Source of the DNA: an uncultured cyanobacterium
GTDB lineage: Bacteria; Cyanobacteriota; Cyanobacteriia; Cyanobacteriales; Cyanobacteriaceae
Assembly: GCA_963710605.1 (NCBI GenBank)
Contig: CAVQBA010000004.1
Span: forward strand, 416,001 to 480,000
DNA length: 64,000 bases
Reading direction: 5' to 3'
Within the stretch, counting starts at the first letter, position 1; each line of letters opens with the position of its first letter. Made by a program: the position numbers and the translations under genes. This document shows, in pieces, positions 3,210-9,992 of this stretch. The notes beneath the pieces are model-generated. The model made no database searches, was not told the DNA's origin, and saw nothing but the letters and a program-made list of their open reading frames with translations.

Positions 3210-3236
3210 AATACATATTTGCTCTTACTTATACTT

Positions 3237-3615
3237 ATGACTAGAATTTTGTTAGTAGAAGATAACGAAATGAATCGAGATATGCTTAGTAGAAGATTAG
3301 CCCGTAAAGGTTATGAAGTTTTAATAGCGGTTGATGGGCAAGAAGGTATTAATATGAGTGTCAGCGAAAATCCCGCCTTAATTTTAATGGATATGAGTTT
3401 ACCAATTATTGATGGCTGTAGCGACCCGACAGCTAAAAAGTAATCCGCGAACAAAATCTATACCAATCATTGCTCTAACCGCTCACGCCATGACAGGAGA
3501 TAAAGACAAAGCCTTGAAAGCAGGATGTGACGATTATGATACTAAACCGATCGATCTCAAAAAACTATTAGGTAAAATAAAAGCCTTAGCTGAAGGAGTA
3601 AGGAGTAAGGAGTAA
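3237..3615 (+). CDS. Single-domain response regulator (DivK/CheY-like), frameshift near 3415
   Basis: [22 protein letters not shown] and [23 protein letters not shown] lie in two overlapping ORFs. Confidence 0.85.
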
Positions 3616-3642
3616 GGAGTAAGGAGTAAGGAGTAAGGAGTG
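3594..3642. repeat. Heptamer tandem repeat (AGGAGTA)x7, STRR-like
   Basis: Read directly; overlaps the response-regulator stop codon. Confidence 0.9.
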
Positions 3643-4189: not shown

Positions 4190-4233
4190 AAGCCTTTGAC
4201 GAGGATTGAACTCGTGACCTCACCCTTACCAAG
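4190..4233 (-). repeat. att core: displaced 3' fragment of tRNA-Thr
   Basis: Identical to 9920-9963; identity ends in the anticodon loop. Confidence 0.93.
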
Positions 4234-4326
4234 AATACGATACAATATAAAATACCTAAAAACTCGTTAATCTATAGCTACTAAGCAACAGACATCGTTC
4301 ATTTTGATGGTTATTTTTAACTAAAA

Positions 4327-4358
4327 CAGGAGAAAAGTAGGAGAAAAGTAGGAGAAAA
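4327..4358 (+). repeat. Putative integrase arm-type sites, 3x (T/C)AGGAGAAAAG, overlapping the int RBS and ATG
   Basis: The same 11-mer occurs as pairs at 9707-9727 and 9818-9838 at the other end of the element. Confidence 0.75.
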
Positions 4359-5569
4359 TGAAACTAATTGAAAAGACAACAGAATCAAAAAGCTACAGAC
4401 CTGCTGAATGCGATCGTGTCACGATTTATAACACAAAAGGTACGATTGCATTAAAGTTTGTTTGTCCAATCAGAGGTAGTCAAAGAGCATTTAATGTAGG
4501 TAAGCTCAAGTGGCTTAATTTAAACGACCATAGAAGTGCTAAGTTAAAAGCTCTAGAGCTAGATAACGATCTTAGATTAGGTTTATACGATGGTGATGTT
4601 AGTAAATATAAGCTAAATAACAACTATAAAAATAAAAAGAACGTTAAAACTAAATCACAAACAAAACAAATTACCCTTAAACAAATATGGGAATATTATA
4701 AAAGTAAAAATAGCCATATTGCTAAAACTACAAAAACTAATAAATGGTCAATTATCGATAAGGTAATAATTGATTCTGATACAGTTGATAGTGTGGCTGA
4801 ATTGGTTGATAGAATGCTTGAAAAATACGCACCATCTACAAGTAAAAGTGTTTTAGTAGCCTTAAATTCAGCTATTAACTTTTCAATTACTCATAATAAA
4901 TACCAAGGTAAAAACTACTTATCTGATATTGCCAGCAAGATAAAAGCACCCAAGAAAAAGAAAATAAAATCTTATTCAAAGCAAGAAACATTAACTATAT
5001 TAGATGCTTTTAAAAATAATACTTATCGTCATGATAAAAACATTTATAATCATTCTTATTATTATGGGTTAATCGCTATTCGTGTTTATACTGGTTGCCG
5101 TCCTTGTGAAGCGATCGCTCTTACTTGGAAAGATATTAAGGTGCGTAATGATAAAACTTATATCATCTTTGATAAGTCTTACAGTGATGAATTAAAACAA
5201 ACAACAAAAAACGGCACCGATCGCATTTTCCCCTGTAACAAAAAACTGCAAGAAATTATCGCCAATTTACCACGAATAGAAAACGATTCTAATTTAGTTT
5301 TTCCTAGCATTAGAGATAAGTCATACATCGATCGTAAAAACTTTACTCATCGAGTTTGGAATAAAGTAATCAAAGGATTATATGATGATGATCTAATTAG
5401 TAAAAAGCTACCATTCTATGATTTACGTCACACTTTTACTACTCATCTTTGTCGTAGCGGTAAAGTTGATTTGGCGACGATCGCATCTTTAGTAGGTAAC
5501 AGTGTCCCAACTCTGATTAACAATTATTTAGCTACTGATGAATCGATCGAATTACCCGACTTGTTTTAA
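4358..5569 (+). CDS. Tyrosine recombinase/integrase
   Basis: YTGCRPCEAIALTWKDI (Arg), TTKNG (Lys), FYDLRHTFTT (x-x-R-H), LVGNS..NNY (Tyr). N-terminal arm-binding-like region. Confidence 0.93.
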   Translation: MKLIEKTTESKSYRPAECDRVTIYNTKGTIALKFVCPIRGSQRAFNVGKLKWLNLNDHRSAKLKALELDNDLRLGLYDGDVSKYKLNNNYKNKKNVKTKSQTKQITLKQIWEYYKSKNSHIAKTTKTNKWSIIDKVIIDSDTVDSVAELVDRMLEKYAPSTSKSVLVALNSAINFSITHNKYQGKNYLSDIASKIKAPKKKKIKSYSKQETLTILDAFKNNTYRHDKNIYNHSYYYGLIAIRVYTGCRPCEAIALTWKDIKVRNDKTYIIFDKSYSDELKQTTKNGTDRIFPCNKKLQEIIANLPRIENDSNLVFPSIRDKSYIDRKNFTHRVWNKVIKGLYDDDLISKKLPFYDLRHTFTTHLCRSGKVDLATIASLVGNSVPTLINNYLATDESIELPDLF

Positions 5570-6939
5570 CCAAAAATACTGAGAAAACTTAATACTCATC
5601 TATTATCTCACCTTACAAACGTGGTCGTTCCAATATCCTTTTTTATGTTTATTTATTTATAAATAACTCTAACAAAATGGTTTTTAGTCAGGGATAATTT
5701 TTTAGTTTTATTACTGAAGATATTTCTATATAGACCTATATAGCTCCATACTGTTATGAAAAATCAAAGTAAAAAGTGCCTCTACAGAAACCTCACAAAT
5801 AAACATAATGCACAATAACACTAATGGTTGTAGTACTCAGAAGATAAATTAATGATTAAAAGAAGGAATATAACAGAATTTATTAATAATATCAAATAAA
5901 CACTAATCGGTAATCTACACCTCTGTTTAAATAAACTTCCTCAGAGCTAAGGAATCTTATAAGCTTACTGGGGGAAAAATTACCTATTGAAAACCTATTT
6001 TCAAATCGCTAAGAAAAACACCAAAAATAAAAAATCAACTACATTTTCAAAGACCTAAAACTTACTTTTAATTTAATTACACTGATATTACAATAAATCT
6101 AGTAAAAAGCGATCGGTTCTAAAGACACAATAACAGTACTAAAACGGTGAAAACTCTTTTACAGTAATACTTTAAAGTCGTTAATATTATTGTGCTAACT
6201 ATATACGCTTGTAGCATATGATTTTGCCCCGTTTAAAGTATCATTAAAAGTATTTTAGAACATAGATTATTGTCTATCGTTTTCGTACAAATAGTTAATG
6301 TCACAATTTAAAATCTATGTGCTGAGACTAATATGTTTTTAATTTATTAGTTATTGATAGCTATTCTCAGATTTATACCTTTAAAGGGGGGGTGAACAAA
6401 AATTTACCGCCCCCCTTAATACTATTTTTGTACTAATAAAATAAGATTATCTTAAAATTGCCTAAACAACTATAAATAAAAGAATACAGCTTTTTATTAG
6501 CTTACTAAATAAAATTAAGTAGAATTTATTAAATCAAACAATCATGATATTTGTCTTAAAAACTATTACTATTTTTTATTGCAAAAAAGTAGTCTTTATT
6601 GATAATAGGTATTTGTTATCATTTGATAAATGATAACAAGTAAAATTGTCATTAAGCTATCTTAATTCTCAACAAGGTTTAGTTGAGTAAATGTATTAAT
6701 TTTATGGTTTTGTTACATTTGTTAATAATAGTGATAATTAAGCTATTTCATAAAACTACTATATACAAATGCTTAAACATAATCAAATTTATTTATGTTA
6801 CAAATTTTAGATGGTAGTGAGGGGGGGTGAACAAAAAATACACCCCCTCACTACAGTGTACTTTTATGAGAAATATTTCTATTAACATCGTTGATATTAT
6901 TTGATATATGATACTAAATGTTATCAACGTTATCAAAAT

Positions 6940-7164
6940 ATGAATACCAATACTAAACAAGTTATTTTTCGCTTACCCGATCATAAATTTACTCTTTTAG
7001 AGTCTAGGTTAAAAGAGATCGGAATGAAAAGACAACAATTCCTTGAGCGTGCTGTTGATGATTTTTTACGCTTTGATAATACAGATGATTTAAAGCGGCA
7101 ACTTTTAAACGATGACGATTTTGTTCTCCAATTGGCTACCAAAGTAGAAAACTTATTAGAGTAA
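6940..7164 (+). CDS. Small ribbon-helix-helix-like DNA-binding protein, paralog 1
   Basis: TKQVIFRLPD beta-strand followed by two helices. ATG at 6940 chosen by alignment with paralog 2. Confidence 0.65.
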   Translation: MNTNTKQVIFRLPDHKFTLLESRLKEIGMKRQQFLERAVDDFLRFDNTDDLKRQLLNDDDFVLQLATKVENLLE

Positions 7165-7274
7165 TCTCATTGCAAAATAAATTTTTGCTCGTATTGAATT
7201 ATGGTGGTTAGTCTTGGTCAGTTAATATTAAAGTAATATTTTCAAGCATAAGTAATATCAGAAATTATCAAATT

Positions 7275-7505
7275 ATGGATACTAATACCAAGCAAGTCGT
7301 TTTTCGCTTACCCGATTGTAAATTTATTCTTTTGGAGTCTAAATTAAAAGAGAGCGGAATTAAAAGACAACAATTTCTTGAACGTGTTATTGATGATTTT
7401 TTAGATCTTAATCACACAAAAGCACGTCATGAGATTCTAAACGATGACGATTTTGTTCTCCAATTGGCTACCAAAGTCAAAAGGAGTTTAAAACAAAAGG
7501 ATTAA
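7275..7505 (+). CDS. Small ribbon-helix-helix-like DNA-binding protein, paralog 2
   Basis: MDTNTKQVVFRLPD..KRQQFLER..LNDDDFVLQLATKV; clear paralog of 6940-7164. Confidence 0.65.
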   Translation: MDTNTKQVVFRLPDCKFILLESKLKESGIKRQQFLERVIDDFLDLNHTKARHEILNDDDFVLQLATKVKRSLKQKD

Positions 7506-7519
7506 ATTTAAGGTAATTA

Positions 7520-8341
7520 TCACGATCGTTTAGTCTTTAAAGCCTTGGTAAACTCACTAAGCATTTCTAATGCTTTGAGATTAACTGGTGTCCGCTGTTC
7601 TTTGTATTTACGTTCTAACAGTTCCTGACTACGACGATCGGATAAGTTTTTAGCTTGAATATATTTTTGATACTCTCTCCACTTCTTAATCGCCTTATCC
7701 CGTTTACTTAGGTGTTTAATTGCATTTTCTTTAGCCCTTTCTCTAGGTTCGTTGTAATTTTGGACAAACTCAGCAGTAACAAACCTAATTAACGGCTCAT
7801 GTTCATAGGGTTTTTCTGGTAGCGGCTCATTCTCTATCACTTCTTTTTGCTGTTCAATAGTCTGTTTGTTCTGTGTGACTTCTCCCTGCTGTTTAGTAGT
7901 AACTTTGTTTTTCTCGTTAATAACTACTCGATCGATATCTTCTTGCTGTTGTTGATAATTTTCTTTTTTTTCTTTTTCTTCTAATTTATTATCTTTAATC
8001 TTAATATCTTTAATCTTAGAGTCGCTGAAATCGTTATTTGGCAATAGTTCTGGACTGGTTAAAGGCTCACTTTTGACCTCTAAAGGCTCACTTGTGATTA
8101 AAAGACTTTTAACGAATTTAAAGGCTTTCCGCTCTCTTAGTTTTTTGACCGCTCTTTTAAAAGAACTAATAGAAATGCCGAATTGTTGGCAAAATTGTTG
8201 GCGATCGATGTTAATTGATTGATTACCAAATGGATCTAGAGAACGCAAATAAAAATAAATGAAGGTTTGGGTGTTGAGTATTCCCTCATTTTTTAAGTTG
8301 ATTATTTCTTGTGTGGTGAGTTTATAAAAAGTGTTATCCAT
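7520..8341 (-). CDS. Winged-HTH replication-initiator-like protein
   Basis: N-terminal HTH (RQQFCQQFGISISSFKRAVKKLRE), SEPL repeats encoded by a 21-bp DNA tandem repeat, then KIKDIKIKD and a charged C-terminus. Confidence 0.55.
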   Translation of the reverse strand: MDNTFYKLTTQEIINLKNEGILNTQTFIYFYLRSLDPFGNQSINIDRQQFCQQFGISISSFKRAVKKLRERKAFKFVKSLLITSEPLEVKSEPLTSPELLPNNDFSDSKIKDIKIKDNKLEEKEKKENYQQQQEDIDRVVINEKNKVTTKQQGEVTQNKQTIEQQKEVIENEPLPEKPYEHEPLIRFVTAEFVQNYNEPRERAKENAIKHLSKRDKAIKKWREYQKYIQAKNLSDRRSQELLERKYKEQRTPVNLKALEMLSEFTKALKTKRS

Positions 8342-8451
8342 GTTTTGGCTTGAAGTAATGATTTAGCCCTAAATAATTGGTGCAAAACGGAAAACCGTGC
8401 ATAGTCCAACTAGTAATTAGTCTTGTTATGCACGGTTATTGTTATGGTTCT

Positions 8452-8727
8452 TTACTTAAGTTTTACAACTGTCTGATGAAGTTGATCAACTGTTTGTTTG
8501 TATTTGTCTAGTGAGTCTTTAAGGTGGTCTAAATGAGTCATGACTATGTACATAGCGGTATCATAATCAATGGTTTCGTCATTACGCTCTACCATTTCGT
8601 TAAAGAACACTCTGATCACTTCAAAATCTGACTCAATAAACAAAAAGTCATTACTTAAATCAAGTAATGAACTTGTCACATCAGACATCGACACACCTTG
8701 CTTAGGTGTAGGTTTGTTTGGTATCAT
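8452..8727 (-). CDS. Hypothetical acidic helical protein (element-borne)
   Basis: 91-aa ORF co-oriented upstream of the initiator-like gene. Confidence 0.55.
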   Translation of the reverse strand: MIPNKPTPKQGVSMSDVTSSLLDLSNDFLFIESDFEVIRVFFNEMVERNDETIDYDTAMYIVMTHLDHLKDSLDKYKQTVDQLHQTVVKLK

Positions 8728-9284
8728 AGGTATAACCTTTATGTAAGAAGTTGAGGTTTAATGCCCCGTTGTGTTTCTACACGATGGGGTAATTACTTTT
8801 TATCCTACCACCAACCTTGTGCATTTTGTCAAGGGTAAATTGAAAATTAATTATTCACGGCTAGAAACGCTTCTAAAAAATCTAGCTATCGATCGTTTGA
8901 GTTGGTGCGATCGTTTTCTCTACCAGAAAAATATTAACTTACATCTCTACTGTACATATGAAATAGGTACAGTTGTTTGAACAAAAAAAGCATTATGCAA
9001 TAATTAAATGATAATTGTTTAATGATGGCGTTCAATAATTCTATTGTACAGTAGATATACTATTAAAAACTTTCATTATCAATAAATTGAATTCAAGACA
9101 CTTAAATCTACTGTACATAAGATATATTATTAGTGAATGTAAGTAAATAATGTATTATGCAAAAAAAGAATAATAAGTATGCAAAAAATATATTAAGTAA
9201 TAATCTACTGTACAGTTGACGTTCGTCTATATCTATGTGTATGATTAAAATGATGAATTTAAAAAGTATAAATCTACTGTACAC

Positions 9285-9578
9285 ATGAAGATAAACAAAG
9301 TTAGTCTGAGTAATTTAAAACCTAATCGATCGAGATGGAATAATCCAGAGACGATCGCTGTTAGAGTACCCAAAATGTTTAAGCAAGAGGTATTAGATTA
9401 CGCTAAGCAATTAGATAATAACCAAGTAGCTAACCAAGTTAGTAATAAAGAAAACTCTACTGTACACAAGGAATTAAAAGAAATACTTACCAAAATAGAA
9501 AACAAAGAAAAGGGATATAAAGGTAATTGTGCTACTGCTTTAATTAAAGAGTTGAAAGCGATCGGTCAACAACTTTAG
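9285..9578 (+). CDS. Small DNA-binding protein (RHH-like, SRWNNPETIAVRVPK)
   Basis: TIAVRVPKMFKQEVLDYAKQLD beta-alpha pattern; preceded by an array of TCTACTGTACA sites. Confidence 0.6.
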   Translation: MKINKVSLSNLKPNRSRWNNPETIAVRVPKMFKQEVLDYAKQLDNNQVANQVSNKENSTVHKELKEILTKIENKEKGYKGNCATALIKELKAIGQQL

Positions 9579-9920
9579 CTTTATTTATTTTTAAGAGTTG
9601 GAGGAGTAACAACTCAATTTCTGAAGGTGAACGGGTAGCTATCACATCCAATTCAATTAACAAATTACTCAACAAACTTCATGACGATCGATCGGCGATC
9701 GTGATTTAGGAGAAAAGTAGGAGAAAATTAATCTTATTGTTTATCAGCGCTTAACTAGGTAAATACTAGAAAACTAAGTATAAAGATACTAATATAAGTT
9801 GATTTATCAGCCTAATCTAGGAGAAAAGTAGGAGAAAACACGAATTATACTATTTACTTAACCTTTCTTACCGTGAAGCTCAACCCCTGAAACCCGTGTA
9901 TGGTGTAGGTTATAGAGGAA

Positions 9921-9992
9921 AGCCTTTGACGAGGATTGAACTCGTGACCTCACCCTTACCAAGGGTGTGCTCTACCACTGAGCTACAAAGGC
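9921..9992 (-). tRNA. trnT: tRNA-Thr(GGT)
   Basis: Reverse complement GCCTTTGTAGCTCAGTGGTAGAGCACACCCTTGGTAAGGGTGAGGTCACGAGTTCAATCCTCGTCAAAGGCT folds as a cloverleaf. Confidence 0.97.

Follow-up and report, generated by a model that had tools for sequence, protein, structure and literature searches.

INTRODUCTION

Tycheposons, as defined in Prochlorococcus and marine bacteria with an integrase clade of their own, are described as elements that use a tyrosine recombinase to integrate into the 3' part of tRNA genes, including those for Thr-GGT and Arg-TCT, that leave partial tRNA repeats and occur as tandem insertions, and whose primase/helicase can be of the VirE type (Hackl et al., bioRxiv 10.1101/2020.12.28.424599). 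PICMI, as characterized in Vibrionaceae, are elements of about 6 kb that integrate at fis and carry few genes, among them an integrase, a small regulator, and a DUF5906-type primase, together with large noncoding regions (PMC10803314). In the literature on plasmids, DUF3854 marks the CyRepA-type replicases (PMC10079941), and chromosomal CyRepA homologues, left unexplained, have been counted in 80 of 145 cyanobacteria (bioRxiv 10.1101/2023.10.09.561360). Here, we analyze a 5,730-bp element integrated in the tRNA-Thr(GGT) gene of an uncultured cyanobacterium (GenBank assembly GCA_963710605.1, contig CAVQBA010000004.1, positions 416,001 to 480,000); this whole stretch of 64,000 nucleotides is called the window, and coordinates are those of the window unless another genome is named.

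The element is not a new class but an unusual, replicase-less variant of a known architecture; the preliminary description of this DNA had raised the prospect of an undescribed class, and the architecture of its family turned out to be that of tycheposons and PICMI-type mini-elements. The likeness to tycheposons is one of architecture: a tyrosine recombinase, tRNA 3' insertion sites with their partial tRNA repeats, tandem insertion, and, in its relatives, VirE/VapE-type primase-helicases correspond to what Hackl et al. described, whereas the replication module, a tycheposon hallmark, is present in all ten relatives that we could delimit and absent from the window element, which unlike tycheposons also carries no cargo or PICI-like packaging genes. 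With the PICMI of the published account, the window element shares its size, the small number of genes, the pairing of an integrase with a small regulator, the noncoding share, and the lack of capsid-remodelling genes. The DUF5906-type primase of PICMI, by comparison, has a counterpart in the relatives only; the PICMI markers alpA (PF05930/PF12728) and primase (DUF3987/DUF5906) gave no Pfam match at E ≤ 1 in any open reading frame (ORF) of the element; the integration site is a tRNA gene rather than fis; and helper dependence, demonstrated for PICMI (PMC10803314), is for the window element a conjecture from sequence. The element thus lacks the replication gene by which both groups are recognized and the alpA that marks PICMI. 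Nor did any of its genes match, in PHROGs, the terS, cpm, sid, or psu genes of PICI/P4-like satellites. As for CyRepA, DUF3854 occurs in the primase-helicases of three relatives, a likeness of domain only, and the window element has no CyRepA-type protein.

RESULTS

The element lies between two copies of an exact 44-nt direct repeat (100% identity), of which the distal one, at 4190-4233, duplicates part of the 3' half of tRNA-Thr, and the proximal one, at 9920-9963, falls within the intact tRNA-Thr(GGT) gene (9921-9992, minus strand; the whole feature, 9920-9992, was located by ARAGORN, Rfam, and repeat search). A tRNA-Tyr gene directly follows that for tRNA-Thr (ARAGORN and Rfam). The repeat spacing of 5,730 bp thus delimits a real mobile element in a cyanobacterial tRNA gene, present as a single copy in a 3.93-Mb assembly that is 84.9% complete. 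Next to the distal repeat lies a gene for a tyrosine integrase of 403 amino acids (aa) at 4358-5569 on the plus strand (PF00589, E = 5e-16; phrog_1, E = 3.4e-40), which retains the R, K, R, and Y positions as well as all residues found invariant across its clade; among the ORFs of the element, it alone has a significant family match in Pfam and PHROGs. The att duplication and the intact integrase of the preliminary description were thereby both confirmed.

Repeat search further revealed, just 5' of the int start codon at 4327-4358 (plus strand), a cluster of three 11-bp-phased units of AGGAGAAAAGT, and the same repeat is present in the other arm, where two more repeat pairs, of the sequence TAGGAGAAAAGTAGGAGAAAA, lie at 9707-9727 and 9818-9838 (plus strand). 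The three 21-mer arm repeats are mutually identical, and within the genome the 21-mer is confined to the window element. In the relatives described below, 11-bp-phased repeats occupy the same positions, i.e., 5' of int and in the other arm about 110 to 250 bp from the att core, with sequences that differ by relative (TGGTCTAAA in G193 and G267, AATGATCCA in G089 and G177, and TAGGGTAAA in G109). Phased repeats on both arms, in a layout kept among relatives, are the pattern expected of integrase arm-type sites.

Relatives of the integrase were sought in 301 genomes of the order at E ≤ 1e-20 and were detected in 114 of them, the window's own genome included. When 20 kb was retrieved around each of the six best matches, whose integrases are 41 to 46% identical to that of the window by blastp (42 to 48% in the search itself), the 3' part of a tRNA gene was in every case repeated 4,989 to 6,586 bp away, next to the integrase. 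The tRNA genes and repeat spacings are Arg-TCT and 6,123 bp in G177; Val-GAC in G267 (6,448 bp), G089 (5,722 bp), and G193 (5,721 bp, in two tandem copies); Thr-TGT and 4,989 bp in G109; and Thr-GGT with its neighboring Tyr, the site used in the window, and 6,586 bp in G258. A second batch comprised 20 regions around more distant matches, four of which were delimited by an exact-16-mer repeat search (G062, 6,215 bp; G093, 6,559 bp; G192, 6,321 bp; and G113, 7,982 bp), with integrases 32 to 36% identical to that of the window; the remaining 16, in which the integrase adjoined the tRNA and the element extended away from the fetched region, the contig ended, or a tRNA was lacking, stand outside all counts given here. 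The ten delimited relatives accordingly span 4,989 to 7,982 bp. Nucleotide similarity between the window element and its relatives is limited to int and the gene for a 97-aa protein that is described below. In G193 (contig C6; L052, 1-11495), the tandem copies of int and a VapE-type gene that lie at tRNA-Val show no difference over 5,773 bp (100% identity), which suggests a very recent double integration and hence a relative that was active recently.

Each of the ten delimited relatives has a gene for a helicase-type replication protein, whose length is mostly 728 to 1,020 aa. The protein is VapE-like in G089, G193, G258, G093, and G062 (where it measures only 416 aa), of the D5_N/DUF5906 type in G177, G267, G192, and G113 (the gene being in three pieces in G267), and of the Toprim_3 plus AAA_25 type in G109; the DUF3854 domain mentioned above resides in the proteins of G258, G093, and G113. 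In four of the relatives (G177, G267, G089, and G193; L049 to L052), clusters of iterons lie in the 3' part of the primase-helicase gene and probably represent the origins of those elements; each cluster holds 5 to 7 iterons, e.g., TGACTCCCCT or GAGGTTGGTA.

By contrast with these relatives, the window element contains no primase-helicase match in Pfam, PHROGs, or NCBIfam. When tblastn was run with 12 of the relatives' proteins, among them 8 primase-helicase ORFs or fragments, the best match in the element had E = 0.09, and no match was obtained in the whole window; the element is thus not a frameshifted remnant carrying that gene. Scans of Pfam, PHROGs, NCBIfam, and PADLOC likewise returned no family match to a relaxase, capsid, or terminase protein, as had been noted from the sequence, and apart from the integrase and one weak Arc-like match, PHROGs yielded no packaging or capsid-redirection gene. 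Nor was defense or toxin-antitoxin cargo recognized: PADLOC gave nothing below E = 1e-3, and NCBIfam nothing significant. In a tree of 25 integrase sequences, the window falls inside a 7-row clade (support 96/96) and, within the tree, a 6-row clade (100/98), and all other members of both clades come from elements that bear a primase-helicase. Because the window copy is nested among such elements, replacement of the replicase in its own lineage is the most economical reading. The tree was drawn with a midpoint root, for drawing only.

Clustering of all ORFs together with tblastn identified, besides the integrase, a single protein common to the window and its relatives. This 97-aa protein, encoded at 9285-9578 on the plus strand, has a ribbon-helix-helix (RHH)-like N terminus and is probably a regulator. 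Homologues were detected by tblastn in 7 of the 10 delimited relatives, with 47 to 53% identity in the three that were aligned; since the protein is about as diverged as the integrase, the two genes appear to have travelled together. Its NCBIfam match to VapB is weak (E = 0.033), a PDB sequence search with the 97-aa alignment returned only a chance-level SAP-domain match (E = 0.3), and scans of IMG/VR with this alignment and with that of the 273-aa protein discussed below returned no relative.

A motif search further uncovered six operator-like sites of the sequence TCTACTGTACA around this gene, at 8946, 9045 (inverted), 9107, 9204, 9273, and 9456. The array (8946-9466) spans the divergent promoter region and extends into the 97-aa gene, and it accounts for all six copies of the motif in the genome. 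Equivalent positions in the relatives hold sites of the TCACTTGTTACAGTGA type, three plus one inverted in G089 and G267 and four copies of a variant in G193. In the window and relatives alike, the copy within the gene coincides with the conserved N-S-x-V-T codons, and across relatives the upstream and intragenic motifs covary. The window element therefore has in common with its integrated relatives a homologous integrase, the size range, and the layouts of both the arm repeats and the operator motifs.

Homologues of the 97-aa protein (40 to 44% identity by tblastn) are also present on 9 PLSDB plasmid records, all from Cyanobacterium or Geminocystis, of which 8 are 4.4 to 6.3 kb long and one is 86 kb; it is this protein that the window element shares with small plasmids of the Geminocystaceae. 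Three records were examined (NZ_CP138351.1, NZ_AP014832.1, and NZ_CP149443.1; L105 to L107), namely, those of pAL20115c and pAL20118f from Cyanobacterium aponinum and pGM3709_11 from Geminocystis sp. NIES-3709. In all three, the gene lies beside an ORF of 792 to 1,019 aa, and in two of the three this large ORF matches the primase-helicases of the relatives (E = 9e-160 and 0.0), one being annotated as VapE. In the relatives and plasmids, the 97-aa gene has as its partner a large ORF of 735 to 1,020 aa (in G062, a VapE protein of 416 aa), whereas the window element is without such an ORF; conversely, the window element has an integrase, and none of the three plasmids gave an integrase match at E ≤ 1e-4. 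Nearly all genes on these records are annotated as hypothetical, and pAL20115c carries a TnpB gene. Altogether, a backbone of regulator and primase-helicase that is found both free and integrated in tRNA genes identifies the lineage as an integrative plasmid. The family consists of 4- to 8-kb cyanobacterial integrative plasmids that combine an integrase and attP with an RHH-like regulator and a primase-helicase with its own iterons. The early impression of an integrated-plasmid-like element was therefore well founded, since the lineage of the integrase and the 97-aa protein occurs in tRNA-integrated elements of 5 to 8 kb and as plasmids.

In place of the large ORF, the window element contains a set of genes and noncoding DNA without counterparts in its relatives' shared backbone, the largest gene being that of a 273-aa protein at 7520-8341 on the minus strand. 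Its AlphaFold model, built from a 24-row alignment, has a mean predicted local distance difference test score (pLDDT) of 78.1 and shows a winged helix (residues 10 to 83), a disordered linker (97 to 153), and a conserved helical C-terminal domain (158 to 272) modelled as four to five helices, with both ordered parts above 90. Foldseek found nothing in PDB at E ≤ 0.001, its highest-ranking entries being the DNA-binding domains of NtcA/Crp, GntR, and MarR proteins, and VIA-align over 48,161 chains gave Z scores of at most 8.2, to winged-helix domains and with coverage of residues 10 to 88 only. The protein itself has no Pfam match. Some of its remote homologues reach PF13730 (HTH_36) with at best 26.4 bits against a cutoff of 25; that domain has been reported in Paracoccus plasmid Rep proteins and in phage replication regions. 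Crp, MarR, and GntR models score equally well or better, so that initiator-like is only a possible label for the protein. Of the "initiator-like helix-turn-helix gene" seen initially, the DNA-binding fold is thus confidently modelled, and its structural matches are generic Crp/GntR/MarR domains.

The 273-aa protein is rare. A word-based search of 5.8 billion proteins returned only itself, and 26 proteins matched at E ≤ 1e-3 among 1.84 billion representatives: three over the full length (53%, 32%, and 28% identity), a few over the C-terminal domain only, and the rest over the N-terminal 80 to 120 residues or so. Matches to the N-terminal domain occur in 28 of the 301 genomes of the order, and those to the C-terminal domain (residues 150 to 273) in 3 of 401 genomes, the window's own included. 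Searches of genome, metagenome, and viral collections found no locus for the full-length homologues (P0002 to P0004), and short contigs with homologues of the N-terminal domain showed no terminal overlaps. One of the C-terminal matches, a homologue with both domains, is encoded on the Geminocystis plasmid pGM3709_08.

Co-directional with the 273-aa gene is an ORF of 91 aa at 8452-8727 (minus strand), for which Pfam, PHROGs, NCBIfam, PADLOC, tblastn against the relatives, and the protein collection gave no family or homologue. Two RHH-like paralogues are encoded on the plus strand. Paralogue 1, at 6940-7164, has 74 aa from the ATG at 6940 (87 aa from the TTG at 6901) and an Arc-like match to phrog_582 (E = 0.004); paralogue 2, of 76 aa at 7275-7505, is linked to it by a 154-nt repeat of 83% identity. 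Their single relative in the 5.8-billion-protein collection is a 57-aa protein 62% identical to paralogue 1. Over 73 aligned codons, the paralogues share 41 identical ones and show 9 synonymous and 23 nonsynonymous differences. The preliminary count of three RHH-like genes has weak support, from a strand-helix-helix pattern and from the phrog_582 and VapB matches. Comparing the profiles of the 97-aa family, of the two paralogues, and of a second small gene present in the relatives gave nothing significant.

Between int and these paralogues extends an AT-rich noncoding stretch of 1.3 kb (5570-6900; GC content, 0.23 to 0.28), in which no stop-to-stop frame of at least 45 aa lies wholly inside (the longest has 44 aa, and two longer ones overlap the right-hand end) and for which no conservation was detected in 19 other genomes of the family. 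The palindromes reported there initially proved real. The perfect palindrome at 6613-6639, with 12-bp arms TTGTTATCATTT and AAATGATAACAA around a 3-nt spacer, has a DNA-fold z of -5.24, with none of 200 shuffles folding equally well, and its GTTATCA half-sites recur as boxes at 6920 and 6929, just 5' of the first RHH gene. A G-rich hairpin with a 12-bp stem at 6814-6854 reaches -14.8 kcal/mol (z = -5.63) and carries the same loop motif, GGGTGAACAAAAA, as a weaker G7/C6 hairpin at 6384-6417 (z = -1.6); the 16-mer of the hairpin loop has two copies in the genome, both within the element. At E ≤ 1, Rfam reported two tRNAs and one sub-threshold hit over a tRNA, with no other RNA in the noncoding DNA, and neither promoter-like sites (36 versus 28.2 ± 5.9 in shuffles) nor terminator-like sites (3 versus 1.9 ± 1.3) exceeded the shuffled background.

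The abundance of CGATCG sites pointed out at the outset was borne out, with 19 in the element where base composition would predict 0.38, a density of 3.29 per kb; a single one of the 19 lies within 5570-7505. The sequence is also strongly overrepresented in the rest of the window, at 2.37 per kb (138 sites in 58.2 kb). The full HIP1 motif (GCGATCGC) is rare in the window, with 9 sites, and the elements of relatives in other genera hold 0 to 5 CGATCG sites each, these being counts of the elements alone, apart from the densities of their hosts.

The only DNA match of the window element elsewhere in its own genome is a promoter- or 5'-leader-like stretch at 5694-5761 (plus strand), which is 83% identical over 68 to 69 nt to positions 626232-626299 of contig C4 (64.4 bits), whereas 60 dinucleotide shuffles of the element searched against the same genome gave at most 48.2 bits (mean, 41.1; standard deviation, 2.3). 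Exactly two copies of its 17-nt core exist in the genome, and a search of 19 others from the family found none. The second copy belongs to an 18.6-kb element in tRNA-Met(CAT) (G000:C4:622208-640839; L095 and L096), at whose two ends the 3' part of tRNA-Met is present as a 49-bp direct repeat. There, the stretch comprises the 62 nt 5' of a 73-aa gene, the first of nine small genes in a leftward operon, plus the start and second codons of that gene. In the window element, the stretch leads only into a 20-codon ORF (5756-5818), so what is conserved is the promoter or leader and not coding sequence. Since no other element shares the stretch, the tRNA-Met element is a possible helper; judging from the sequence, the match may stem either from common regulation, which would give a helper a means of control, or from a past recombination that left a scar.

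The tRNA-Met element encodes an integrase, an 807-aa AAA_25 primase-helicase, a cI-like repressor, an Arc-like protein, and an endolysin (phrog_10051, E = 2e-51), together with eleven genes that have no PHROG or Pfam match. Two of the eleven, coding for 663 and 250 aa, served as queries against the phage collection and found nothing there. PDB contained no sequence relative of the 663-aa protein or of one of 425 aa, and the 250-aa protein as modelled (pLDDT, 62.4) resembled no known or capsid fold at E ≤ 0.001. Phage-like by its genes, the element may be a novel small temperate virus. The genes for 250 and 174 aa occur again as a pair in G035, G109 (contig C6), and G143, and G263 contains a homologue of the 250-aa protein.

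In G318, a genome of the same genus (67% complete), tRNA-Thr and tRNA-Tyr lie on a 4.3-kb contig whose left flank is weakly alignable to that of the window, and no clearly empty syntenic tRNA-Thr site was found in that genome. On another contig of G318 (C146; L068, 3329-12000), a 49-bp partial copy of tRNA-Thr, identical to the window att, lies beside a broken integrase of another type and also adjoins plasmid- or conjugation-like genes (ParA-like and coupling-protein-like); the same tRNA-Thr site thus serves a different, larger element. Just left of the window element, at 3219-3615, a response-regulator receiver domain is seemingly split between overlapping ORFs (3219-3443 and 3409-3615); the PF00072 match of the second is limited to profile positions 61 to 110, and a frameshift or a sequencing error is possible. 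The heptamer AAGGAGT forms a perfect tandem array of about 7 copies at 3593-3641, at the 3' end of the response-regulator ORF.

DISCUSSION

With all ten delimited relatives carrying a primase-helicase, the window copy is best seen as a module-swapped derivative rather than a self-standing minimal design. We therefore hold, with modest confidence, that the element is a still-recombination-competent derivative of an integrative plasmid whose replicase module has been swapped for an alternative maintenance or replication module. The recombination module, consisting of Int, the repeats of both arms, and the 44-bp core, appears intact and is predicted to be still able to excise and reintegrate the element. 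The 97-aa protein would bind the TCTACTGTACA sites and repress in both directions, as a Cop-type plasmid repressor does, and so control the divergent promoters that serve its own gene rightward and the 91-aa/273-aa operon leftward. The primase-helicase replicon would have been replaced, not merely inactivated, by a foreign module made up of the 273-aa winged-helix protein, the 91-aa orphan, the two RHH-like paralogues, and the 1.3 kb of palindrome-rich, AT-rich DNA. Our working guess is that this module provides an alternative maintenance or replication system dependent on the host replisome, in which the winged-helix protein would bind the palindromes and would itself be controlled by the 97-aa repressor.

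Several observations weigh against this view. In the 273-aa protein, only a generic winged helix is recognizable, with no fold match to plasmid or phage initiators in searches that did not query the C-terminal domain separately, and the plasmid that carries its two-domain homologue, pGM3709_08, already has two annotated Rep genes (Rep and RepL), so the family need not be a replicase. The other genes of the supposed module, i.e., the 91-aa ORF and the RHH-like paralogues, are orphans, and the codon differences between the paralogues do not demonstrate purifying selection. The window element has no iteron array of the relatives' type. Loss of the primase-helicase, as read from the integrase tree, requires a root outside the 7-row clade. 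Finally, coding DNA amounts to 3,060 of 5,730 bp, leaving 46.6% noncoding, close to the roughly 45% of the preliminary description; this, together with the single copy and a CGATCG density like that of the host, fits a long and possibly passive residence.

These same features can be turned into the opposite account, in which the element is a defective remnant that lost its replicon and is now a passively inherited island, its middle module being unrelated cargo or junk. Alone among the 11 delimited family members, it lacks a primase-helicase; nearly half of it is noncoding with no frame of at least 45 aa wholly inside the 1.3-kb stretch, and its orphan ORFs, single copy, host-like CGATCG density, and paralogues without clear purifying selection are all what such a remnant might display. 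We nevertheless judge this unlikely, because the parts that decay would blur first remain sharp: the 44-bp repeats are exact, the 21-mer arm repeats identical, and the six 11-mer operator sites exact, the integrase is full length with all clade-invariant residues, and the 273-aa protein has a confident two-domain model and conserved full-length homologues at 28 to 53% identity. A remnant could accommodate the integrase and repeats if the loss were recent or occasional excision neutral. A deletion remnant of a larger element, by contrast, is ruled out by size; the preliminary description had looked to much larger homologous elements as the sign of one, and the 10 relatives proved to be of the same size (4,989 to 7,982 bp), with no primase-helicase fragments left in the window element. 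We consider it improbable that the element is a helper-dependent satellite, induced, replicated, and/or packaged by the 18.6-kb tRNA-Met element and sensing it through 5694-5761. The shared stretch, whose 64.4 bits exceed the shuffle maximum of 48.2 and which is absent elsewhere in the genome and from 19 family genomes, would speak for such a link, as would the integrase, AAA_25 primase-helicase, cI-like repressor, Arc-like protein, and endolysin of the putative helper, and architecturally similar mini-elements (PICMI and PICI-like tycheposons) are described as phage satellites. Yet 11 candidate structural genes of the tRNA-Met element lack a PHROG or Pfam match, its 250-aa protein model (pLDDT 62) matched no capsid fold, and its viral status is that of a candidate; the shared stretch could also be a recombination scar of co-resident elements, and the window element's own close relatives are plasmids rather than known satellites.

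Both ideas might be joined if a former integrative plasmid had discarded its primase-helicase and become wired to the 18.6-kb phage-like element through the shared promoter/operator, giving a satellite-helper pair caught in a plasmid-to-satellite transition with the winged-helix protein as the only replication or partition factor; we regard this as quite improbable. An integrative mobilizable element, transferred by conjugation from an unrecognized oriT in the palindrome-rich region with a relaxase supplied in trans, is very improbable. The strong palindromes at 6613-6639 and 6814-6854 could house such an origin, RHH proteins are commonly accessory factors of relaxosomes, and conjugation-like genes lie next to this tRNA-Thr site in G318, a genome of the same genus, but scans of the element with Pfam, PHROGs, Rfam, and NCBIfam detected neither a relaxase or coupling protein nor a known oriT family.

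What follows for cyanobacterial biology depends in part on how the middle module behaves. If the swapped module replicates, it would be a new compact cyanobacterial replicon and a potential vector part. If the shared promoter serves helper control, it would open a tractable satellite-helper system in culturable cyanobacteria, and were the satellite reading true, the satellite and its helper would reside in unicellular Geminocystaceae, cyanobacteria of fresh or brackish water. Should neither replication nor helper control hold, the element would be an ordinary decaying island. Integrated mini-plasmids like the relatives could, from their sequences, explain the chromosomal CyRepA homologues, and the supplementary tables of the preprint that counted these homologues may include some of the relatives found here (bioRxiv 10.1101/2023.10.09.561360). 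Altogether, the family links small cryptic plasmids of the Geminocystaceae, chromosomal replicase genes of the CyRepA/VapE type, and tRNA mini-elements of the tycheposon/PICMI type, which until now have been treated separately. Its relatives reveal one replicon family that exists both free and integrated, and the window copy indicates that the backbone of integrase and regulator is able to outlast replacement of the replicase.

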